Source: a virus
Lineage: Duplodnaviria > Heunggongvirae > Uroviricota > Caudoviricetes
Direction: 5' to 3' (one strand)
DNA: 8,717 bases
Virus record (IMG/VR): IMGVR_UViG_2724679073_000005
This document shows, one piece after another, positions 1 to 8,717 of this stretch. The position numbers and the translations under genes were made by a program. The notes under the pieces are model-generated. The model saw nothing but the letters and a program-made list of their open reading frames with translations. It searched no databases and had not been told where the DNA came from. Positions within the stretch are counted from its first letter, which is position 1. Each line of letters starts with the position of its first letter.

Positions 1-332
1 CTAACTTTGCAACAGTGCCACCGGATTTACGCGGTGAGTTTATCCGTGGTTGGGATGATGGGCGAGGTGTGGATGCGGGAAGGGTCATCTTAAGCATACA
101 GGGGTGGTTAACAGGAAGTCATTATCATAATATTCGGTCATGGGACGCGTGGGATAACACGGTATTGGTGCCAAATGACAGAGGGGGGGATAGTCTGTTG
201 TCGACAGATAACGCCGTCCGGCAAGGAGCGATTAATGGTAAATTTACCAGTCAATACAGAACGGAGTTATCTGGGGGGAATGAAACCCGCCCACGTAACA
301 TTGCCTTCAATTATATTGTGAGAGCAGCATAA
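1..332 (+). CDS. Tail fibre protein, C-terminal variable (receptor-binding) cassette in expressed orientation; 5' end truncated by window edge
   Basis: Frame open from position 3 to TAA at 330-332 (NFATVPPDLRGEFIRGWDDGRG...ETRPRNIAFNYIVRAA). No credible start or RBS inside the window; the GTG at 15 is an ORF-caller artefact. Stop overlaps the ATG of the downstream chaperone gene (TAATG). Shares the GEFIRGWDDGRG block and the C-terminal 16-aa motif with the three minus-strand cassettes. Confidence 0.8.
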   Translation, partial: NFATVPPDLRGEFIRGWDDGRGVDAGRVILSIQGWLTGSHYHNIRSWDAWDNTVLVPNDRGGDSLLSTDNAVRQGAINGKFTSQYRTELSGGNETRPRNIAFNYIVRAA

Positions 333-943
333 TGGATAATGCGATATTAAATAGCGAACTTATAGCCATACAGGCAGGAAACATTATCGTTTATAACTAT
401 GATGGTGGTAATCGGGAATATATTTCTGCATCAACTGAATATCTTGCTGTTGGCGTTGGTATTCCGGCAAATTCTTGTTTGGATGCTCCAGGCTCACATA
501 AAGCAGGTTATGCGATTCTCCGTTCAGAGGATTTAAGTTCATGGGAGTATGTGCCAGATCATCGTGGCGAAACTGTCTATAGCATTGACACTGGGAATCC
601 CGAAGAAATCACGGTGTTGGGTGACTATCCGGAAAATACAACCACTATCGCCCCGCTAACACCATACGACAAATGGGATGGAGAGAAATGGGTGGTTGAT
701 ACTGAGGCTCAACATAGTGCAGCTGTAGAGGCAGCAGAAACAAAACGTCAGTCATTGATTGATACTGCGATGGATTCCATTAGTCTGATTCAGTTGAAAT
801 TACGGGCTGGACGGAAGTTGACGCAGGCAGAAACCACGCAGCTTAACTCCGTGCTAGATTATATAGACGAGCTGAACGCGATGGATTTAACCACGGCACC
901 AGATCTCAACTGGCCTGAAAAACAACTTTCTACAGCCAGTTGA
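332..943 (+). CDS. tfa: Tail fibre assembly protein (Tfa; Mu U / P2 G / lambda Tfa-type chaperone)
   Basis: 203-aa ORF translationally coupled to the tail-fibre stop. Size and position are typical of Tfa. C-terminal region (...LTQAETTQLNSVLDYIDELNAMDLTTAPDLNWPEKQ) resembles the conserved Tfa C-terminal domain ending in a (N/E)WPE motif, as recalled from P2 G. Confidence 0.8.
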   Translation: MDNAILNSELIAIQAGNIIVYNYDGGNREYISASTEYLAVGVGIPANSCLDAPGSHKAGYAILRSEDLSSWEYVPDHRGETVYSIDTGNPEEITVLGDYPENTTTIAPLTPYDKWDGEKWVVDTEAQHSAAVEAAETKRQSLIDTAMDSISLIQLKLRAGRKLTQAETTQLNSVLDYIDELNAMDLTTAPDLNWPEKQLSTAS

Positions 944-948
944 TATAA

Positions 949-1467
949 TTAATCCGCCCTCACAATATAATTAAATGCAATATTACGAGGGCGGGTTTCT
1001 AAGCCAGCAGTACCTAAATTAGCTACGGACTGTTTATATGTTTTAAAAGTTCCATAATTAGGGGCTGGCAATCCTGCATCGCTTGTGTTCCCCCATCTGA
1101 TAACTCCCGTATTACCACTAGTAGCCCATGCCTCGTCAAAGTAGAAATTAATTGAGCGGTCAGTTGCTACGGTTGATTTTGACGGTAATCCGTGAGCATG
1201 ATCCTCCGTTGCATATCCTTGCTCGCTTAAAATAGAGCGACCAGAGTCAATCCCTCGCCCATCATCCCAGCCACGGATAAACTCACCGCGTAAATCAGGT
1301 AATTTTAACGTTGGGTAAACCTTTGCCAGATTTGGGTACTTTTCAGAAGAAAATGCTGCTCCGTTACATTTCAGCCACCCCGTTGGCGGAGTGGCTGAGG
1401 GCCACGGAACAGGTACGCCAACAGGCAATGCTGAGCCTTCCCCCAAACCAACGTTTTTATGCCGCCC
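949..1467 (-). CDS. Silent alternative tail-fibre C-terminal cassette A (promoterless 3' gene segment)
   Basis: Minus-strand frame open from 1467 down to stop at 949-951: GRHKNVGLGEGSALPVGVPVPWPSATPPTGWLKCNGAAFSSEKYPNLAKVYPTLKLPDLRGEFIRGWDDGRG...ETRPRNIAFNYIVRAD. No ATG or RBS; the TTG 'start' at 1444-1446 lies inside the crossover-site candidate. Convergent with tfa, 5 bp apart. Confidence 0.7.
   Translation of the reverse strand, partial: GRHKNVGLGEGSALPVGVPVPWPSATPPTGWLKCNGAAFSSEKYPNLAKVYPTLKLPDLRGEFIRGWDDGRGIDSGRSILSEQGYATEDHAHGLPSKSTVATDRSINFYFDEAWATSGNTGVIRWGNTSDAGLPAPNYGTFKTYKQSVANLGTAGLETRPRNIAFNYIVRAD
1256..1467 (-). repeat. ~210-bp repeat unit (copy 1 of 3) covering the site-proximal conserved part of cassette A
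   Basis: Near-identical to 1769-1981 and 2228-2441 by direct comparison. Encodes GEGSALPVGVPVPWPSATPPTGWLKCNGAAFSSEKYPNLAK(V/A)YPT(L/N)KLPDLRGEFIRGWDDGRG. Boundaries approximate. Confidence 0.8.
1438..1463. other. Candidate 26-bp serine-invertase crossover site (site A), hix/gix/cix-like
   Basis: TTCCCCCAAACC-AA-CGTTTTTATGCC. Left 12-bp half matches the invertase half-site pattern TTnTCnnAAACC in 8 of 12 positions; central AA dinucleotide; right half degenerate. Sits at the 5' edge of cassette A and overlaps the stop codon of cassette B. Confidence 0.55.
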
Positions 1468-1981
1468 TTACGATGTAATTAAATGCAACGTTGCGAGGGC
1501 GAGTTTCTGTACCTACATTTCCACTAATTTCACCATAACGTTTAACACTACGAGAGCTAATAGCTCGTAGTGAGGAAGGCACCTTATGACCGGGTTCGTC
1601 CGTTTTAACTATTCCCCCGTCACCGTATGTAGCTAGTATTCCTGGATTTACGCCTTCCCGTGCACTTCCTGCGGCGAGTCCGCCCCCTGTCCATAATTCC
1701 ATATAGTGTGCATGGTCCAAAATTGTGTGTGGCTGCCAATTAAGCAAAGCGCGGCCAGCATCCACCCCGCGCCCATCATCCCAGCCACGGATAAATTCAC
1801 CGCGTAAATCAGGTAATTTTAACGTTGGGTAAACCTTTGCCAGATTTGGGTACTTTTCAGAAGAAAATGCTGCACCATTGCATTTCAGCCACCCCGTTGG
1901 CGGTGTGGCTGAGGGCCATGGAATAGGTACACCAACGGGCAGCGCCGAGCCTTCCCCTAAACCAACGTTTTTATGCCGCCC
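1457..1981 (-). CDS. Silent alternative tail-fibre C-terminal cassette B (promoterless 3' gene segment)
   Basis: Manual translation shows the minus-strand frame open from 1981 to stop at 1457-1459 (~174 codons); the ORF track only reports 1457-1765 from an internal GTG. Begins GRHKNVGLGEGSALPVGVPIPWPSATPPTGW...PDLRGEFIRGWDDGRGVDAG and ends ETRPRNVAFNYIVRAA. Its stop codon lies inside the crossover-site candidate of cassette A. Confidence 0.7.
   Translation of the reverse strand, partial: GRHKNVGLGEGSALPVGVPIPWPSATPPTGWLKCNGAAFSSEKYPNLAKVYPTLKLPDLRGEFIRGWDDGRGVDAGRALLNWQPHTILDHAHYMELWTGGGLAAGSAREGVNPGILATYGDGGIVKTDEPGHKVPSSLRAISSRSVKRYGEISGNVGTETRPRNVAFNYIVRAA
1769..1981 (-). repeat. ~210-bp repeat unit (copy 2 of 3), cassette B
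   Basis: The cassette C-terminal-proximal ~65 bp is identical to copy 1; the site-proximal ~135 bp is about 90% identical. Boundaries approximate. Confidence 0.8.
1952..1977. other. Candidate 26-bp serine-invertase crossover site (site B)
   Basis: TTCCCCTAAACC-AA-CGTTTTTATGCC, one mismatch to site A, same orientation. At the 5' edge of cassette B, overlapping the stop codon of cassette C. Confidence 0.55.
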
Positions 1982-2441
1982 TTACGATATAATTAAAGGC
2001 AATATTACGAGGACGGTTTTCATTAGCTGTTGGCACGACACGAGAGGCGTCGAATCCAAGGTCATCGGTTTTGCCTATATCAGTTGTGTTATTCGGCATT
2101 CTCGCAGATCGTGTTCCTGCATCATAAAAAGCCCCTCTGATTGCATCAAAAGACATGCCAATCCCGCCATCTGCGAACCCCTCAATATTTCTTATTGCAT
2201 CCCCCTGTGAAGATAATAATTGTCGCCCGGCATCCACACCACGTCCGTCATCCCAGCCACGAATAAATTCACCGCGTAAATCCGGCAATTTATTAGTAGG
2301 GTAAGCCTTTGCCAGATTTGGGTACTTTTCAGAAGAAAATGCTGCTCCGTTACATTTCAGCCACCCCGTTGGCGGAGTGGCTGAGGGCCACGGAACAGGT
2401 ACGCCAACAGGCAATGCTGAGCCTTCCCCCAAACCAACGTT
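1971..2441 (-). CDS. Silent alternative tail-fibre C-terminal cassette C (promoterless 3' gene segment)
   Basis: Minus-strand frame open from 2441 to stop at 1971-1973. N-terminal 42 residues are identical to cassette A (identical DNA over ~135 bp), followed by a distinct middle and ENRPRNIAFNYIVRAA at the C-terminus. No start codon or RBS of its own. Confidence 0.7.
   Translation of the reverse strand, partial: NVGLGEGSALPVGVPVPWPSATPPTGWLKCNGAAFSSEKYPNLAKAYPTNKLPDLRGEFIRGWDDGRGVDAGRQLLSSQGDAIRNIEGFADGGIGMSFDAIRGAFYDAGTRSARMPNNTTDIGKTDDLGFDASRVVPTANENRPRNIAFNYIVRAA
2228..2441 (-). repeat. ~210-bp repeat unit (copy 3 of 3), cassette C
   Basis: The site-proximal ~135 bp (2305-2440) is identical to copy 1 (1321-1446); the distal part has diverged (KAYPTNK versus KVYPTLK). 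Boundaries approximate. Confidence 0.8.
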
Positions 2442-2449
2442 TTAGTCTT
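2424..2449. other. Candidate 26-bp serine-invertase crossover site (site C), adjacent to invertase gene
   Basis: TTCCCCCAAACC-AA-CGTTTTAGTCTT. Left half and core identical to site A, right half diverges. Lies 55 bp upstream of the invertase ATG, the usual position of the gene-proximal site in Gin/Cin/Hin systems. Confidence 0.55.
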
Positions 2450-2503
2450 AATCCCTACCTATACCAACGATGTATTTTTAACTAAACAAAGAGGTTGTTT
2501 TTC

Positions 2504-3076
2504 ATGCAAATTGGCTACATTCGTGTGTCAACAAATGACCAAAACACAGATTTACAAAGAAATGCACTGAACTGCGCAGGATGTGAACTGATTTTTGAAG
2601 ATAAAATAAGCGGAACAAAGTCAGCCAGACCAGGCTTGAAAAAGCTGCTCAGAACGTTATCAGAAGGAGATACGCTGGTTGTCTGGAAGCTGGATAGGCT
2701 TGGCAGAAGTATGAAACACCTTATCACGCTTATAGAGGAGTTGCGGGAAAAAGGTGTTAATTTCCGTAGTCTGACAGACAGTATTGACACATCAACACCC
2801 ATGGGGCGTTTCTTTTTTCATGTCATGGGTGCTTTAGCAGAAATGGAACGTGAATTAATTGTTGAGAGAACACTGGCCGGACTGGCAGCTGCACGCGAAC
2901 AGGGACGCATTGGCGGACGTCGCCCGAAGTTGACAAAAGAACAACATGAGCAAATAGCGAGGTTGATCGAAAATGGCTACAGCAGGAAACAGTTGGCAAT
3001 TATTTACGATATCGGTGTATCGACGATTTATCGTTATCATCCTGTAGAGAAGCGCCAAACTCAATCTGAGCTGTAA
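2504..3076 (+). CDS. Serine site-specific DNA invertase, Gin/Cin/Pin/Hin/Min family (resolvase-type catalytic domain plus C-terminal HTH)
   Basis: MQIGYIRVSTNDQNTDLQRNAL... carries the catalytic-serine motif (RVST), the conserved VVWKLDRLGRS and FRSLTDSIDTSTPMGRFFFHVMGALAEMERELI blocks, and the GRIGGRRPKLT hinge, followed by an HTH tail. ATG at 2504 has an AAGAGG RBS 10 nt upstream. Exact ortholog (cin, min, pin) cannot be decided by eye. Confidence 0.95.
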   Translation: MQIGYIRVSTNDQNTDLQRNALNCAGCELIFEDKISGTKSARPGLKKLLRTLSEGDTLVVWKLDRLGRSMKHLITLIEELREKGVNFRSLTDSIDTSTPMGRFFFHVMGALAEMERELIVERTLAGLAAAREQGRIGGRRPKLTKEQHEQIARLIENGYSRKQLAIIYDIGVSTIYRYHPVEKRQTQSEL

Positions 3077-3196
3077 TTCTAATGCCGCGTCGGTGTAATT
3101 TATCTTGATAGAATAGGTACATTTATCGCGCGGCACATCAATTCGATGTATCTAGCGCCTGCTGACCGCTAATGAAAACTGTTCTCGAAATGTTGT

Positions 3197-3215
3197 CCCT
3201 AGTCCGAGACTAGGG
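3197..3215. promoter_or_regulatory. Perfect 8-3-8 inverted repeat (CCCTAGTC-cga-GACTAGGG); candidate operator or late-promoter element
   Basis: 19-bp dyad in the non-coding leader between the invertase and the downstream operon. No U-run follows, so it is not an intrinsic terminator. A TANNNT hexamer (TAGGGT, 3211-3216) overlaps its right arm, positioned 3' of the dyad centre. Function unverified. Confidence 0.35.
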
Positions 3216-3775: not shown

Positions 3776-3820
3776 GTCTCTTATGCAACATAACCGGTTG
3801 AGAAGTTACTTTGCATACCA

Positions 3821-7491: not shown

Positions 7492-7503
7492 GGCGTAACA
7501 GGG

Positions 7504-8717
7504 ATGAGCTTAAGCGATCAGGTGGTAATGGCCACCAGCATAGAAACGCTGATCGAGCTGCTTAAGAACCTGCCCGATTATGGGCGGGTTTCGTATGTGG
7601 TGACAGCGAAGGGAGACGAGGTAAAAACAGCGTTTGATATCGTCGATGCCTCAGCTCTTTTGGTATCCAATACTCTGGATGGGAAAATTAATCCTGACTA
7701 TCCCCAGGAACTTCAGCCGCGCGACCGGACCCGCGCATCCAGCCTTCTTCAGGTTAACCAGATATCCAAAGATTTGCGGCCTGCTCAGCTTACTGATTCC
7801 GGTTTATCCAGCCATGGTGCGCCGATAATTGGTGAGGACAATGCCGTTGAGTCAGGTAATGGACGGACCATGGGGATCATCAAAGCCTATCAGGACGGCA
7901 ATGCGGATCGGTATCGTGAGTACCTGATTGATCATGCGACCGAATTCGGCATACGACCTGAAAAGGTTGAATCAATGACGGCTCCGGTACTGGTGCGCCG
8001 CCGGTTAACTAAGGTTGACCGCGTTCAGTTTGCCAAGGACTCAAATATTTCTGATCTTCAGGAAATGGCAGCCAGTGAAAAGGCTTTTGTTGATGCCGAC
8101 AGCATAACACCGGCGATGATGGCGCTTTTTAACCCGTCAGAAAGCGGAGATCTGCTTAGCCGCAGTAATGACGCGTTTATTCGCGGATTTATGACGCAAG
8201 TTGGTGCCACACAGGCGGCTGGCCTTGTAACTGAAGATGGGCGACCAACACGGCAACTTGTAGACCGTATACAAAACGCGATCTTTGCCAAGGCATATAA
8301 GGATGCGCGCCTGGTAAGGATGGTTGCAGAAGAACCTGATCCGGATATGCGTAATGTTCTGACGGCGCTTAATGCGGCAGCCAATGATTTTGTCCAGATG
8401 CAGGCTTTATCAGGAGAAGCGCACAAGCAGGCTGTGACAACTATTGTTGATGGCATTGAGACAGCGGATAGCCTCGATAAAAAGGCGCTGGCGGCATTGA
8501 AAGATGCGGTAGACCTGGTAAGGCAATCGAAGGAGTCAGGCCAGCATATTACCGATGTTATTGCTCAGGGGGATATGTTCAGCGAAACGGCCCCGGAAGT
8601 GAAAGCACTCGCGTTGTTCATCGTCGCGAATAACCGTAGCGCGAAGCGTATGGCCACCGCCTTTAAGTTGATGGCTCAACGTATCAATGATGAGTTACAG
8701 GGCACTGTTGCAAAGTT
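7504..8717 (+). CDS. ddrB: DdrB-like large protein, N-terminal ~404 codons (3' end beyond window)
   Basis: Checked codon by codon: frame open from ATG at 7504 to the window end with no stop. The ORF track misses it because no stop is reached. Follows the ddrA-like gene as in the P1 darA operon. Confidence 0.5.
   Translation, partial: MSLSDQVVMATSIETLIELLKNLPDYGRVSYVVTAKGDEVKTAFDIVDASALLVSNTLDGKINPDYPQELQPRDRTRASSLLQVNQISKDLRPAQLTDSGLSSHGAPIIGEDNAVESGNGRTMGIIKAYQDGNADRYREYLIDHATEFGIRPEKVESMTAPVLVRRRLTKVDRVQFAKDSNISDLQEMAASEKAFVDADSITPAMMALFNPSESGDLLSRSNDAFIRGFMTQVGATQAAGLVTEDGRPTRQLVDRIQNAIFAKAYKDARLVRMVAEEPDPDMRNVLTALNAAANDFVQMQALSGEAHKQAVTTIVDGIETADSLDKKALAALKDAVDLVRQSKESGQHITDVIAQGDMFSETAPEVKALALFIVANNRSAKRMATAFKLMAQRINDELQGTVAK

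Follow-up and report, generated by a model that had tools for sequence, protein, structure and literature searches.

A shared C-terminal peptide in a multi-inversion tail-fibre region very probably closes a T4 gp37-type collar domain

Introduction

The receptor-binding tip of T4 gp37 (PDB 2XGF) runs from a collar segment through a variable, HxH-bearing insert and back to the collar, ending in NIAFNYIVR.A; in the crystal structure, its trimeric collar domain consists of residues 811-860 and 1016-1026 (PMC12724248). Tips of the gp37/lambda-Stf family have a gp38/Tfa-type gene directly downstream (Magaziner & Salmond 2022, PMC9659904). The T4 short tail fibre gp12 (PDB 1OCY, 5IV5) also has a PF07484 collar and, near its C-terminus, a closing strand, ETRPWNISLNYIIKV. 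It differs in its receptor-binding insert and in its assembly, which needs gp57A and no gp38/Tfa: gp12 was folded with gp57A only (PMC3004832), and the gene downstream of it encodes fibritin, with no tfa.

Invertible fibre 3' ends occur in the C segment of P1 and the G segment of Mu. These have an invertase homologous to the one described here and an equal site layout, but the number of orientations is limited to two, and a separate Tfa (U or U') belongs to each. Neither the collar nor the tag discussed below is present in their S and S' tips, which share another end motif, RP[IV]Q..ING[TI]WYN. The Min system of p15B and the Pin system of e14, studied by Sandmeier, Iida and Arber in 1990-1992, reportedly combine a Din-family invertase with several 26-bp sites and many 3' fibre cassettes.

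Here we analyze an 8,717-nt stretch of viral DNA (IMG/VR record IMGVR_UViG_2724679073_000005), hereafter the window. An initial annotation had proposed that four fibre cassettes share an invariant C-terminal tag, kept by selection on the protein, through which a single Tfa chaperone could serve four different tips. As a whole, this interpretation is partly supported.

Results and discussion

Layout of the locus

The window is a multi-inversion tail-fibre region of the p15B-Min/e14-Pin type, and its carrier is a P1-like E. coli phage-plasmid; what it has in common with Min and Pin is, we presume, the P1-like backbone, the invertase, the sites and the alternative 3' cassettes. It holds the right part of the inversion region, with four cassettes and three crossover sites (Table 1), a layout repeated in related P1-like plasmids with up to eight cassettes. 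The inserts are 76-91 residues long and carry one HxH motif each in A, B and C and none in D, whereas gp37 has seven HxH motifs and a much longer insert. Another difference from gp37 is that an invertase joins the tips here, which are exchangeable 3' cassettes.

The stop codon of cassette A overlaps the start of tfa (TAATG), placing tfa directly downstream of a fibre tip, as in the gp37/lambda-Stf family. Its product matches Pfam Caudo_TAP (PF02413, E = 3e-30, residues 78-197), alone among the six ORFs scanned in the fibre region (3-3073), in agreement with the earlier count of one tfa. P1 gpR was considered as a second, constant Tfa and rejected, having no Caudo_TAP match.

Table 1. Coordinates of features in the tail-fibre region of the window.
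Feature	Position	Strand	Sequence	Remarks
Cassette A	3-332	+		Tail-fibre variable cassette, 3' part; 5' end cut by window start; insert of variable-region cluster V3 with one HxH motif (HYH)
Tag of cassette A	282-329	+	ETRPRNIAFNYIVRAA	Probable closing strand of collar domain
tfa	332-943	+		Tail fibre assembly protein, 203 aa
Cassette B	949-1450	-		Tail-to-tail with tfa; HAH motif
Collar N-terminal segment of cassette B	1276-1419			Pfam Collar PF07484, E = 8e-15; T4 gp37 and gp12 matches
Tag of cassette B	952-999	-	ETRPRNIAFNYIVRAD	
Crossover site	1438-1463		TTCCCCCAAACC-AA-CGTTTTTATGCC	Overlaps cassette C stop and last Ala codon
Cassette C	1457-1964	-		HAH motif
Collar N-terminal segment of cassette C	1790-1933			Pfam Collar, E = 6e-15
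Tag of cassette C	1460-1507	-	ETRPRNVAFNYIVRAA	
Crossover site	1952-1977		TTCCCCTAAACC-AA-CGTTTTTATGCC	Overlaps cassette D stop and last Ala codon
Cassette D	1971-2436	-		No HxH motif; QGDAIRNI-type insert
Collar N-terminal segment of cassette D	2262-2405			Pfam Collar, E = 3e-15
Tag of cassette D	1974-2021	-	ENRPRNIAFNYIVRAA	
Rightmost crossover site	2424-2449		TTCCCCCAAACC-AA-CGTTTTAGTCTT	
Serine invertase, Din family (Min/Pin-like)	2495-3076	+		Likely start ATG at 2504; Pfam Resolvase, E = 2e-51, plus HTH_7

The shared ending is maintained at the protein level

All four cassettes end in E[T/N]RPRN[I/V]AFNYIVRA[A/D], as their last 16 codons confirm. Calling this tag invariant slightly overstates the case: 13 of the 16 positions are invariant, while positions 2, 7 and 16 vary. 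The span first given for it, 283-2018, was 1-3 nt off at either end. The earlier count of six synonymous and one non-synonymous difference is correct for the pair A versus B in the present labels (the D of the initial annotation is cassette B here, and its C, with ENRPRN, is cassette D).

Over all six cassette pairs, the tags differ at 7-11 of 48 nucleotides, with 4-10 synonymous and 1-2 non-synonymous codon differences (Nei-Gojobori dN 0.03-0.07, dS 0.6 to saturated). Counted at the minimum, 12 codon changes are synonymous and 3 are not (binomial P = 1.2e-5 under a null of 25% synonymous changes). The same pattern extends across 83 related loci, in which 73 DNA versions of the tag encode 31 peptides: first and second codon positions of tag residues 3-14 are almost fixed, and third positions are near random, with all four Pro and all four Ala codons in use. 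The tag is real and is kept by selection on the protein, as the initial annotation had argued from the codon differences; dN/dS and the variety at third positions bear this out.

That annotation had also held that no DNA site is involved, the one small exception being that cassettes C and D have their stop and final Ala codon within 26-bp crossover sites. The case for conservation through a DNA function, whether the ending belonged to the invertase crossover site or served cassette swapping as a homology arm, would rest on these two sites (1438-1463 and 1952-1977), which take in the stop, the final Ala codon and one base more, on the last codon being GCA in 52 of the 73 DNA versions, and on the 53 of 155 cassette ends that abut a crossover site. 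The overlap amounts to only 4 coding bases, however; the remaining 44 differ at 7-11 positions between cassettes, third positions are saturated family-wide, and cassettes A and B keep the peptide with no site after the tag. We consider a DNA-level function very improbable. Even less credible is that the identity of the tags is left over from recent duplication or gene conversion among the cassettes. The 5' part of the collar does have a dS of 0.23-0.55, below that of the tag, which fits some homogenization near the crossover sites, but the tag combines a dS of 0.6 to saturated with a dN of 0.03-0.07, and its peptide persists across 27 insert clusters and 73 DNA versions. Synonymous divergence of this size contradicts gene conversion as the source of the tag identity.

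The ending matches the closing strand of a collar domain

Selection on the protein is readily understood if these 16 residues form the C-terminal strand that closes a phage tail collar domain in a T4-gp37-type receptor-binding tip, which we regard as very probable. The N-terminal parts of cassettes B, C and D score 55-56 bits with Pfam Collar (PF07484), whose cut-off is 24. Cassette A is truncated here by the window start, with PDLRGEFIRGWDDGRG the visible remainder, and over its tag there is a weak match to PF14928 (E = 8e-4, under the curated cut-off). With a profile built from 37 cassettes, the T4 gp37 tip (2xgf) is hit at E = 9e-25; the alignment covers everything from the collar to the exact C-terminus, NIAFNYIVRLA, where the tag core aligns to residues 1016-1026. 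Against T4 gp12, this profile aligns twice in collinear order, to the collar and to ETRPWNISLNYIIKV. The second collar segment of the cassettes, about 100 residues downstream of the first, is the part that aligns with gp37 1016-1026 and with the gp12 C-terminus.

Structure prediction is consistent with this assignment. In an AlphaFold2 monomer model of cassette B, the collar has pLDDT values of 77-91 and the terminal strand (residues 166-170) about 81, with the insert below 50. A Foldseek search with the model ranked 2xgf first and aligned 1ocy, the gp12 collar superposing at 1.7 A rmsd over 57 columns. Profile comparison also places the strand in the short tail fibre of phiTE, internally rather than at the terminus. 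We rejected 9CUY as a structural template: it models the phiTE short fibre for residues 3-92 alone, and it backs the sequence comparison, not the fold.

One cassette is very probably one complete tip, made of a collar segment, a variable receptor-binding insert and a return to the collar. About 50 collar residues come first; by analogy with gp37, the chain would then leave through the insert and double back, and the last ~11 residues (NIAFNYIVRAA) would re-enter the trimeric collar next to its N-terminal segment, packing as in gp37. The invertase could attach any of the cassettes to the constant shaft immediately ahead of the collar; because such a module begins and ends in one small domain, its junction with the shaft would always have the same fold. 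Purifying selection on both collar halves could then be structural (packing, trimer interface, fit to the shaft), with the insert free to vary, and the collar may act as the register for trimer formation.

A closing strand of this kind is already known, also in T4 gp37 and gp12, so the finding is largely ordinary: it is a known kind of feature and reveals no new mechanism. It does explain how cassettes can be exchanged freely, each being an insert within one small domain with both ends at the shaft junction, and it gives a design rule for host-range engineering, namely to exchange the whole stretch that begins with the collar N-terminal segment and ends with the closing strand.

The wider family shows the same coupling. 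Across the 83 loci, the tag lies exactly 3 residues before the stop in all 155 occurrences, and in 150 of them the ORF also contains the collar motif further upstream. It also ends 118 of the 148 best representatives of 50%-identity clusters (18,306 matches in all), and RPRNIAFNYIVRAA recurs near letter-for-letter in more than 100 clusters with different inserts. Two observations tell against the structural account. Conservation is much stricter within the cassette family than among gp12, phiTE and gp37, and an extra constraint (chaperone, shaft junction or folding kinetics) may act on top of plain packing. The gp38/Tfa-dependent gp37, moreover, has the closer version of the strand (NIAFNYIVR.A), the Tfa-independent gp12 the looser one.

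Relation to Tfa

The idea of a separate docking tag for Tfa did not hold up, the peptide being the second half of the collar, where gp37 1016-1026 packs with 811-860. The strand, moreover, is present in a fibre that has no Tfa partner, T4 gp12, the kind of observation that the initial annotation had said would count against its reading. To call the strand a trimerization element is fair only insofar as the collar domain is itself trimeric. That one Tfa could serve several tips is plausible and has indirect support from near-identical Tfas after unrelated inserts and from a single tfa in most loci with three or more cassettes.

A reading compatible with the structural explanation is that the tag, or the collar holding it, is a handle by which a single Tfa registers the three C-terminal ends, one chaperone serving all cassettes. 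Of 20 loci with at least three cassettes, 18 have exactly one tfa; 72 pairs of Tfas are at least 90% identical in their N-terminal part while following inserts less than 40% identical, and the Spearman correlation between insert identity and identity of the Tfa N-terminal part is only 0.12. The gene order of the gp37/lambda-Stf tip family (PMC9659904) is as this reading would have it.

We nevertheless think a Tfa handle unlikely. Besides the strand of gp12, which does without Tfa, and that of phiTE, which is internal, a tagged single cassette with its own tfa is found at 58 loci, so the tag is no adaptation to sharing. The fibre tip of phage SKA5 is 95% identical to cassette D and has its own tfa. 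Cassette D, whose tag is identical in kind to the others, is elsewhere paired with a Tfa that shares, over the N-terminal part, only 28-29% identity with the Tfa in the window; two Tfa N-terminal types accompany one tag, tag and chaperone type are not matched, and the tag is therefore not a Tfa-specific docking tag. The geometry is unfavourable as well: it is the variable N-terminal domain of the Mu and Pam3 Tfas that binds, and it binds the distal part of the fibre (PMC9608196), whereas the C-terminus of gp37-type tips lies at the proximal collar. Finally, the tag makes up only 16 of the ~100 residues common to the cassettes. A sequence search of the PDB with the Tfa of the window returned no match, giving no sequence link to the Mu Tfa structure.

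Somewhat more doubtful still is a broader version, with the conserved collar and closing strand as a common handle by which one generalist Tfa would bring the three chains into register in as many as eight unrelated tips. Such a Tfa might work through its conserved C-terminal half, and this would also cover tips like cassette D whose native Tfa differs in its N-terminal part. The expression of tfa is left unexplained here, because tfa flips at every inversion.

The inversion system and the orientation of tfa

The three crossover sites in the window lie at cassette 5' ends, share one orientation and have the 12-2-12 layout of P1 cixR and Mu gixR. Oppositely oriented partner sites lie upstream of the window, being present in the 95%-identical plasmid L001 and at other loci. 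The invertase is 73% identical to Cin and 70% to Gin, and positions 2522-2593 align at ~80% identity with what is annotated in P1 cin as the inversion enhancer. Among related plasmids that have these cassettes, order and orientation vary, which fits shuffling and is not proof of it for this element.

Since tfa lies in the central segment, every inversion flips it, and the earlier point that inversion would turn it against the expressed fibre gene is correct. Having to act in trans, the difficulty then raised, is not the real problem; the problem is the transcription of an inverted tfa. A sigma-70 scan of 1-3200 for a promoter of the inverted gene gave 5 sites against 5.8 expected from shuffled sequence. 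The P1 late promoters LPs and LPdar had no match with up to 4 mismatches in 19 within 1-3100; LPdar itself lies at 3803.

Locus type and gene content

The first 3.1 kb of the window are 91–99% identical to E. coli plasmids of ~95 kb, genes of the P1 lydA/lydB-dar operon lie downstream of the fibre region, and an identical copy of the P1 late promoter LPdar is found at 3803, which together identify the window as part of a P1-like phage-plasmid. We take its fibre region to be a multiple-inversion system of the p15B-Min/e14-Pin type. A two-state P1 C segment was rejected as the locus type. The full region in L001, a 95%-identical plasmid, holds the constant part of S followed by four cassettes on the plus strand, a single tfa (tail fibre assembly) gene, three cassettes on the minus strand and the invertase.

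Features of the fibre region in the window
Feature	Position	Strand	Remarks
Cassette A	3–332	+	5' end missing; window start falls inside it
tfa	332–943	+	Caudo_TAP, E = 3e-30
Cassette B	949–1450	−	
Cassette C	1457–1964	−	
Cassette D	1971–2436	−	
Din-family serine invertase	2495–3076		73% identical to Cin, 70% to Gin
26-bp crossover sites (n = 3)	1438–1463, 1952–1977, 2424–2449		12-2-12 layout as in P1 cix and Mu gix

Because tfa sits between the innermost crossover sites, it is flipped by every inversion. Inside the invertible region, a sigma-70 scan (of 1–3200) gave no signal above chance, and no P1 late promoter was found (in 1–3100).

The listed invertase ORF opens with a TTG at 2495, but translation more likely starts at the ATG at 2504 (MQIGYIRVS). 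Positions 2522–2593 align at ~80% identity with the P1 cin stretch annotated as the enhancer for Cin-mediated inversion. Directly after ddrA, an ORF that extends past the window end (~7500–8717, at least 408 aa) is, by gene order, probably the P1 ddrB homologue; at the matching position L001 carries an inserted IS200/IS605-type TnpB gene (16527–17735). RefSeq treats the promoterless 3' cassettes at 7908–11428 of L001 as individual genes ('phage tail protein') that start at internal TTG or GTG codons, and several L001 cassettes are marked as frameshifted pseudogenes.

The tag is conserved as protein

As the initial annotation had noticed, the four cassettes end in the same 16-residue peptide, the tag (ETRPRNIAFNYIVRAA in A, ...RAD in B, ETRPRNVAF... 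in C and ENRPRN... in D), with 13 of its 16 positions invariant. The tag DNA differs pairwise at 7–11 of 48 nucleotides, with 4–10 synonymous and 1–2 non-synonymous codons; the pair for which six and one had been counted is A and B. With dN at 0.03–0.07, dS ranging from 0.6 to saturated, and a minimal count of 12 synonymous against 3 non-synonymous codon changes (P = 1.2e-5), the earlier proposal of selection on the protein rather than on a DNA site holds. In 83 related loci, 31 tag peptides are encoded by 73 DNA versions, whose third codon positions are near-random and whose first and second positions are nearly fixed.

Overlap between tag and crossover-site DNA is limited to the stop codon, the last Ala codon and one base of cassettes C and D. 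It may account for the preference for GCA as the last tag codon (52 of the 73 DNA versions). The outer half of each crossover site consists of the previous cassette's last Ala codon and stop codon (GGCA-TAA-AAACG), and across related loci the site is kept while the stop codon changes (TAA, TGA or TAG). In the 5' collar part (1276–1419, 1790–1933, 2262–2405), dS is 0.23–0.55, much below that of the 3' tag; this could reflect either homogenisation of the cassettes close to the crossover sites or mosaic cassettes whose parts differ in age.

The tag corresponds to the closing strand of the collar domain

A profile built from 37 cassettes aligns with the crystallised tip of the T4 long tail fibre protein gp37 (2xgf) over the whole module (E = 9e-25), and the match ends at the gp37 C-terminus, NIAFNYIVRLA. 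The T4 short tail fibre protein gp12 is matched by the same profile in two collinear segments: the collar and ETRPWNISLNYIIKV. The trimeric collar domain of gp37 comprises residues 811–860 and 1016–1026 (PMC12724248), the latter being exactly NIAFNYIVRLA, and in gp37-type tips the chain turns back at the head and re-enters the collar (PMC12609058). In an AlphaFold2 monomer model of cassette B, the collar has pLDDT values of 77–91 and the terminal strand (166–170) ~81, while the insert, the variable part between collar segment and tag, is not confident; Foldseek ranks 2xgf first for this model and superposes the gp12 collar at 1.7 Å rmsd. The tag is thus identified as the strand that closes the collar; both the domain element and the kind of locus are already known.

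Each cassette is a complete collar-insert-collar module, and the invertase would attach it to the shaft immediately ahead of the collar, within ...N-V-G-L-G-E-G. It is very probable that the two halves of the trimeric collar domain are both under structural purifying selection, and that this turns the cassettes into plug-in units sharing one and the same junction.

All 155 tag-type endings in the 83 loci lie exactly three residues before the stop, and for 150 of them the same ORF also contains the collar motif further upstream. When the 18,306 hits are clustered at 50% identity, 118 of the 148 best representatives carry the tag at their end; the remainder are mostly truncated or frameshifted. 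Matches to a 31-residue C-terminal peptide of gp12 that includes the gp12 form of the strand are found in 792 phage records. The proteins P0122, P0157, P0162 and P0232 (570–1271 aa) each have more than one collar motif or profile-matching stretch in a single chain. In all except P0122, strands resembling the tag also occur at places other than the C-terminus; in P0157, for example, PRNIAVMWCI appears three times. Such proteins could be genuine tandem tips or the product of gene calls that merged cassettes.

A possible shared Tfa for many tips

The initial annotation had read the tag as a plausible docking or trimerisation element through which one Tfa serves all four tips. A shared Tfa is reasonable and has already been proposed: in the literature, gp38 is held to bring together the gp37 C-terminal ends, and the modularity of the gp37-type tip family has been attributed to a conserved downstream chaperone (PMC9659904). 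Exactly one tfa is present in 18 of 20 loci with at least three cassettes, always in a central unit of cassette, tfa and convergent cassette. Elsewhere, Tfas following A-, B- and C-type inserts are of the window's type, with N-terminal parts 82–100%, 51–74% and 59–79% identical, respectively; among those after A-type inserts, one truncated 143-aa ORF is at 33%. The correlation between insert and Tfa identity is very weak (Spearman 0.12), and in 72 Tfa pairs with N-terminal identity of at least 90% the preceding inserts are less than 40% identical. Among the IMG/VR loci L003–L082, Tfas with 97–98% identical N-terminal parts lie directly 3' of cassettes whose inserts are only 26–33% identical, implying frequent recombination at or near the tag-tfa junction. 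The tag is 16 of ~100 residues common to the cassettes, and nothing singles it out from the rest. That the collar also provides the register on which a Tfa acts, an idea compatible with the structural explanation, we regard as rather unlikely.

Several observations argue against the tag being a Tfa-specific handle. T4 gp12 carries the strand, yet its next gene is fibritin, not tfa, and it folds with gp57A, not gp38 (PMC3004832). In the short fibre of phiTE the strand is internal, at about residues 288–305 of 554. A single tagged cassette with its own tfa occurs in 58 loci, so the tag is not an adaptation to Tfa sharing. Cassette D, the only one of the four without an HxH motif, has the same tag; phage SKA5 carries a 95%-identical copy with its own Tfa, and in global alignment this Tfa type is 28–29% identical to the window's in the N-terminal part and 71–72% in the last 100 residues. 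All three loci in which cassette D has its own tfa (including L002, 2408–3462) show this 28–29% identity, and in the window, L001 and L004 cassette D is present with only the other Tfa type in the locus.

Unlike the window, with collar, tag and one tfa in the fibre region, the classical two-tfa loci of P1 and Mu have a Tfa for each of their S and S' tips and lack both collar and tag. Yet these tips have a conserved ending of their own in common, RP[IV]Q..ING[TI]WYN; shared endings thus occur without shared chaperones.
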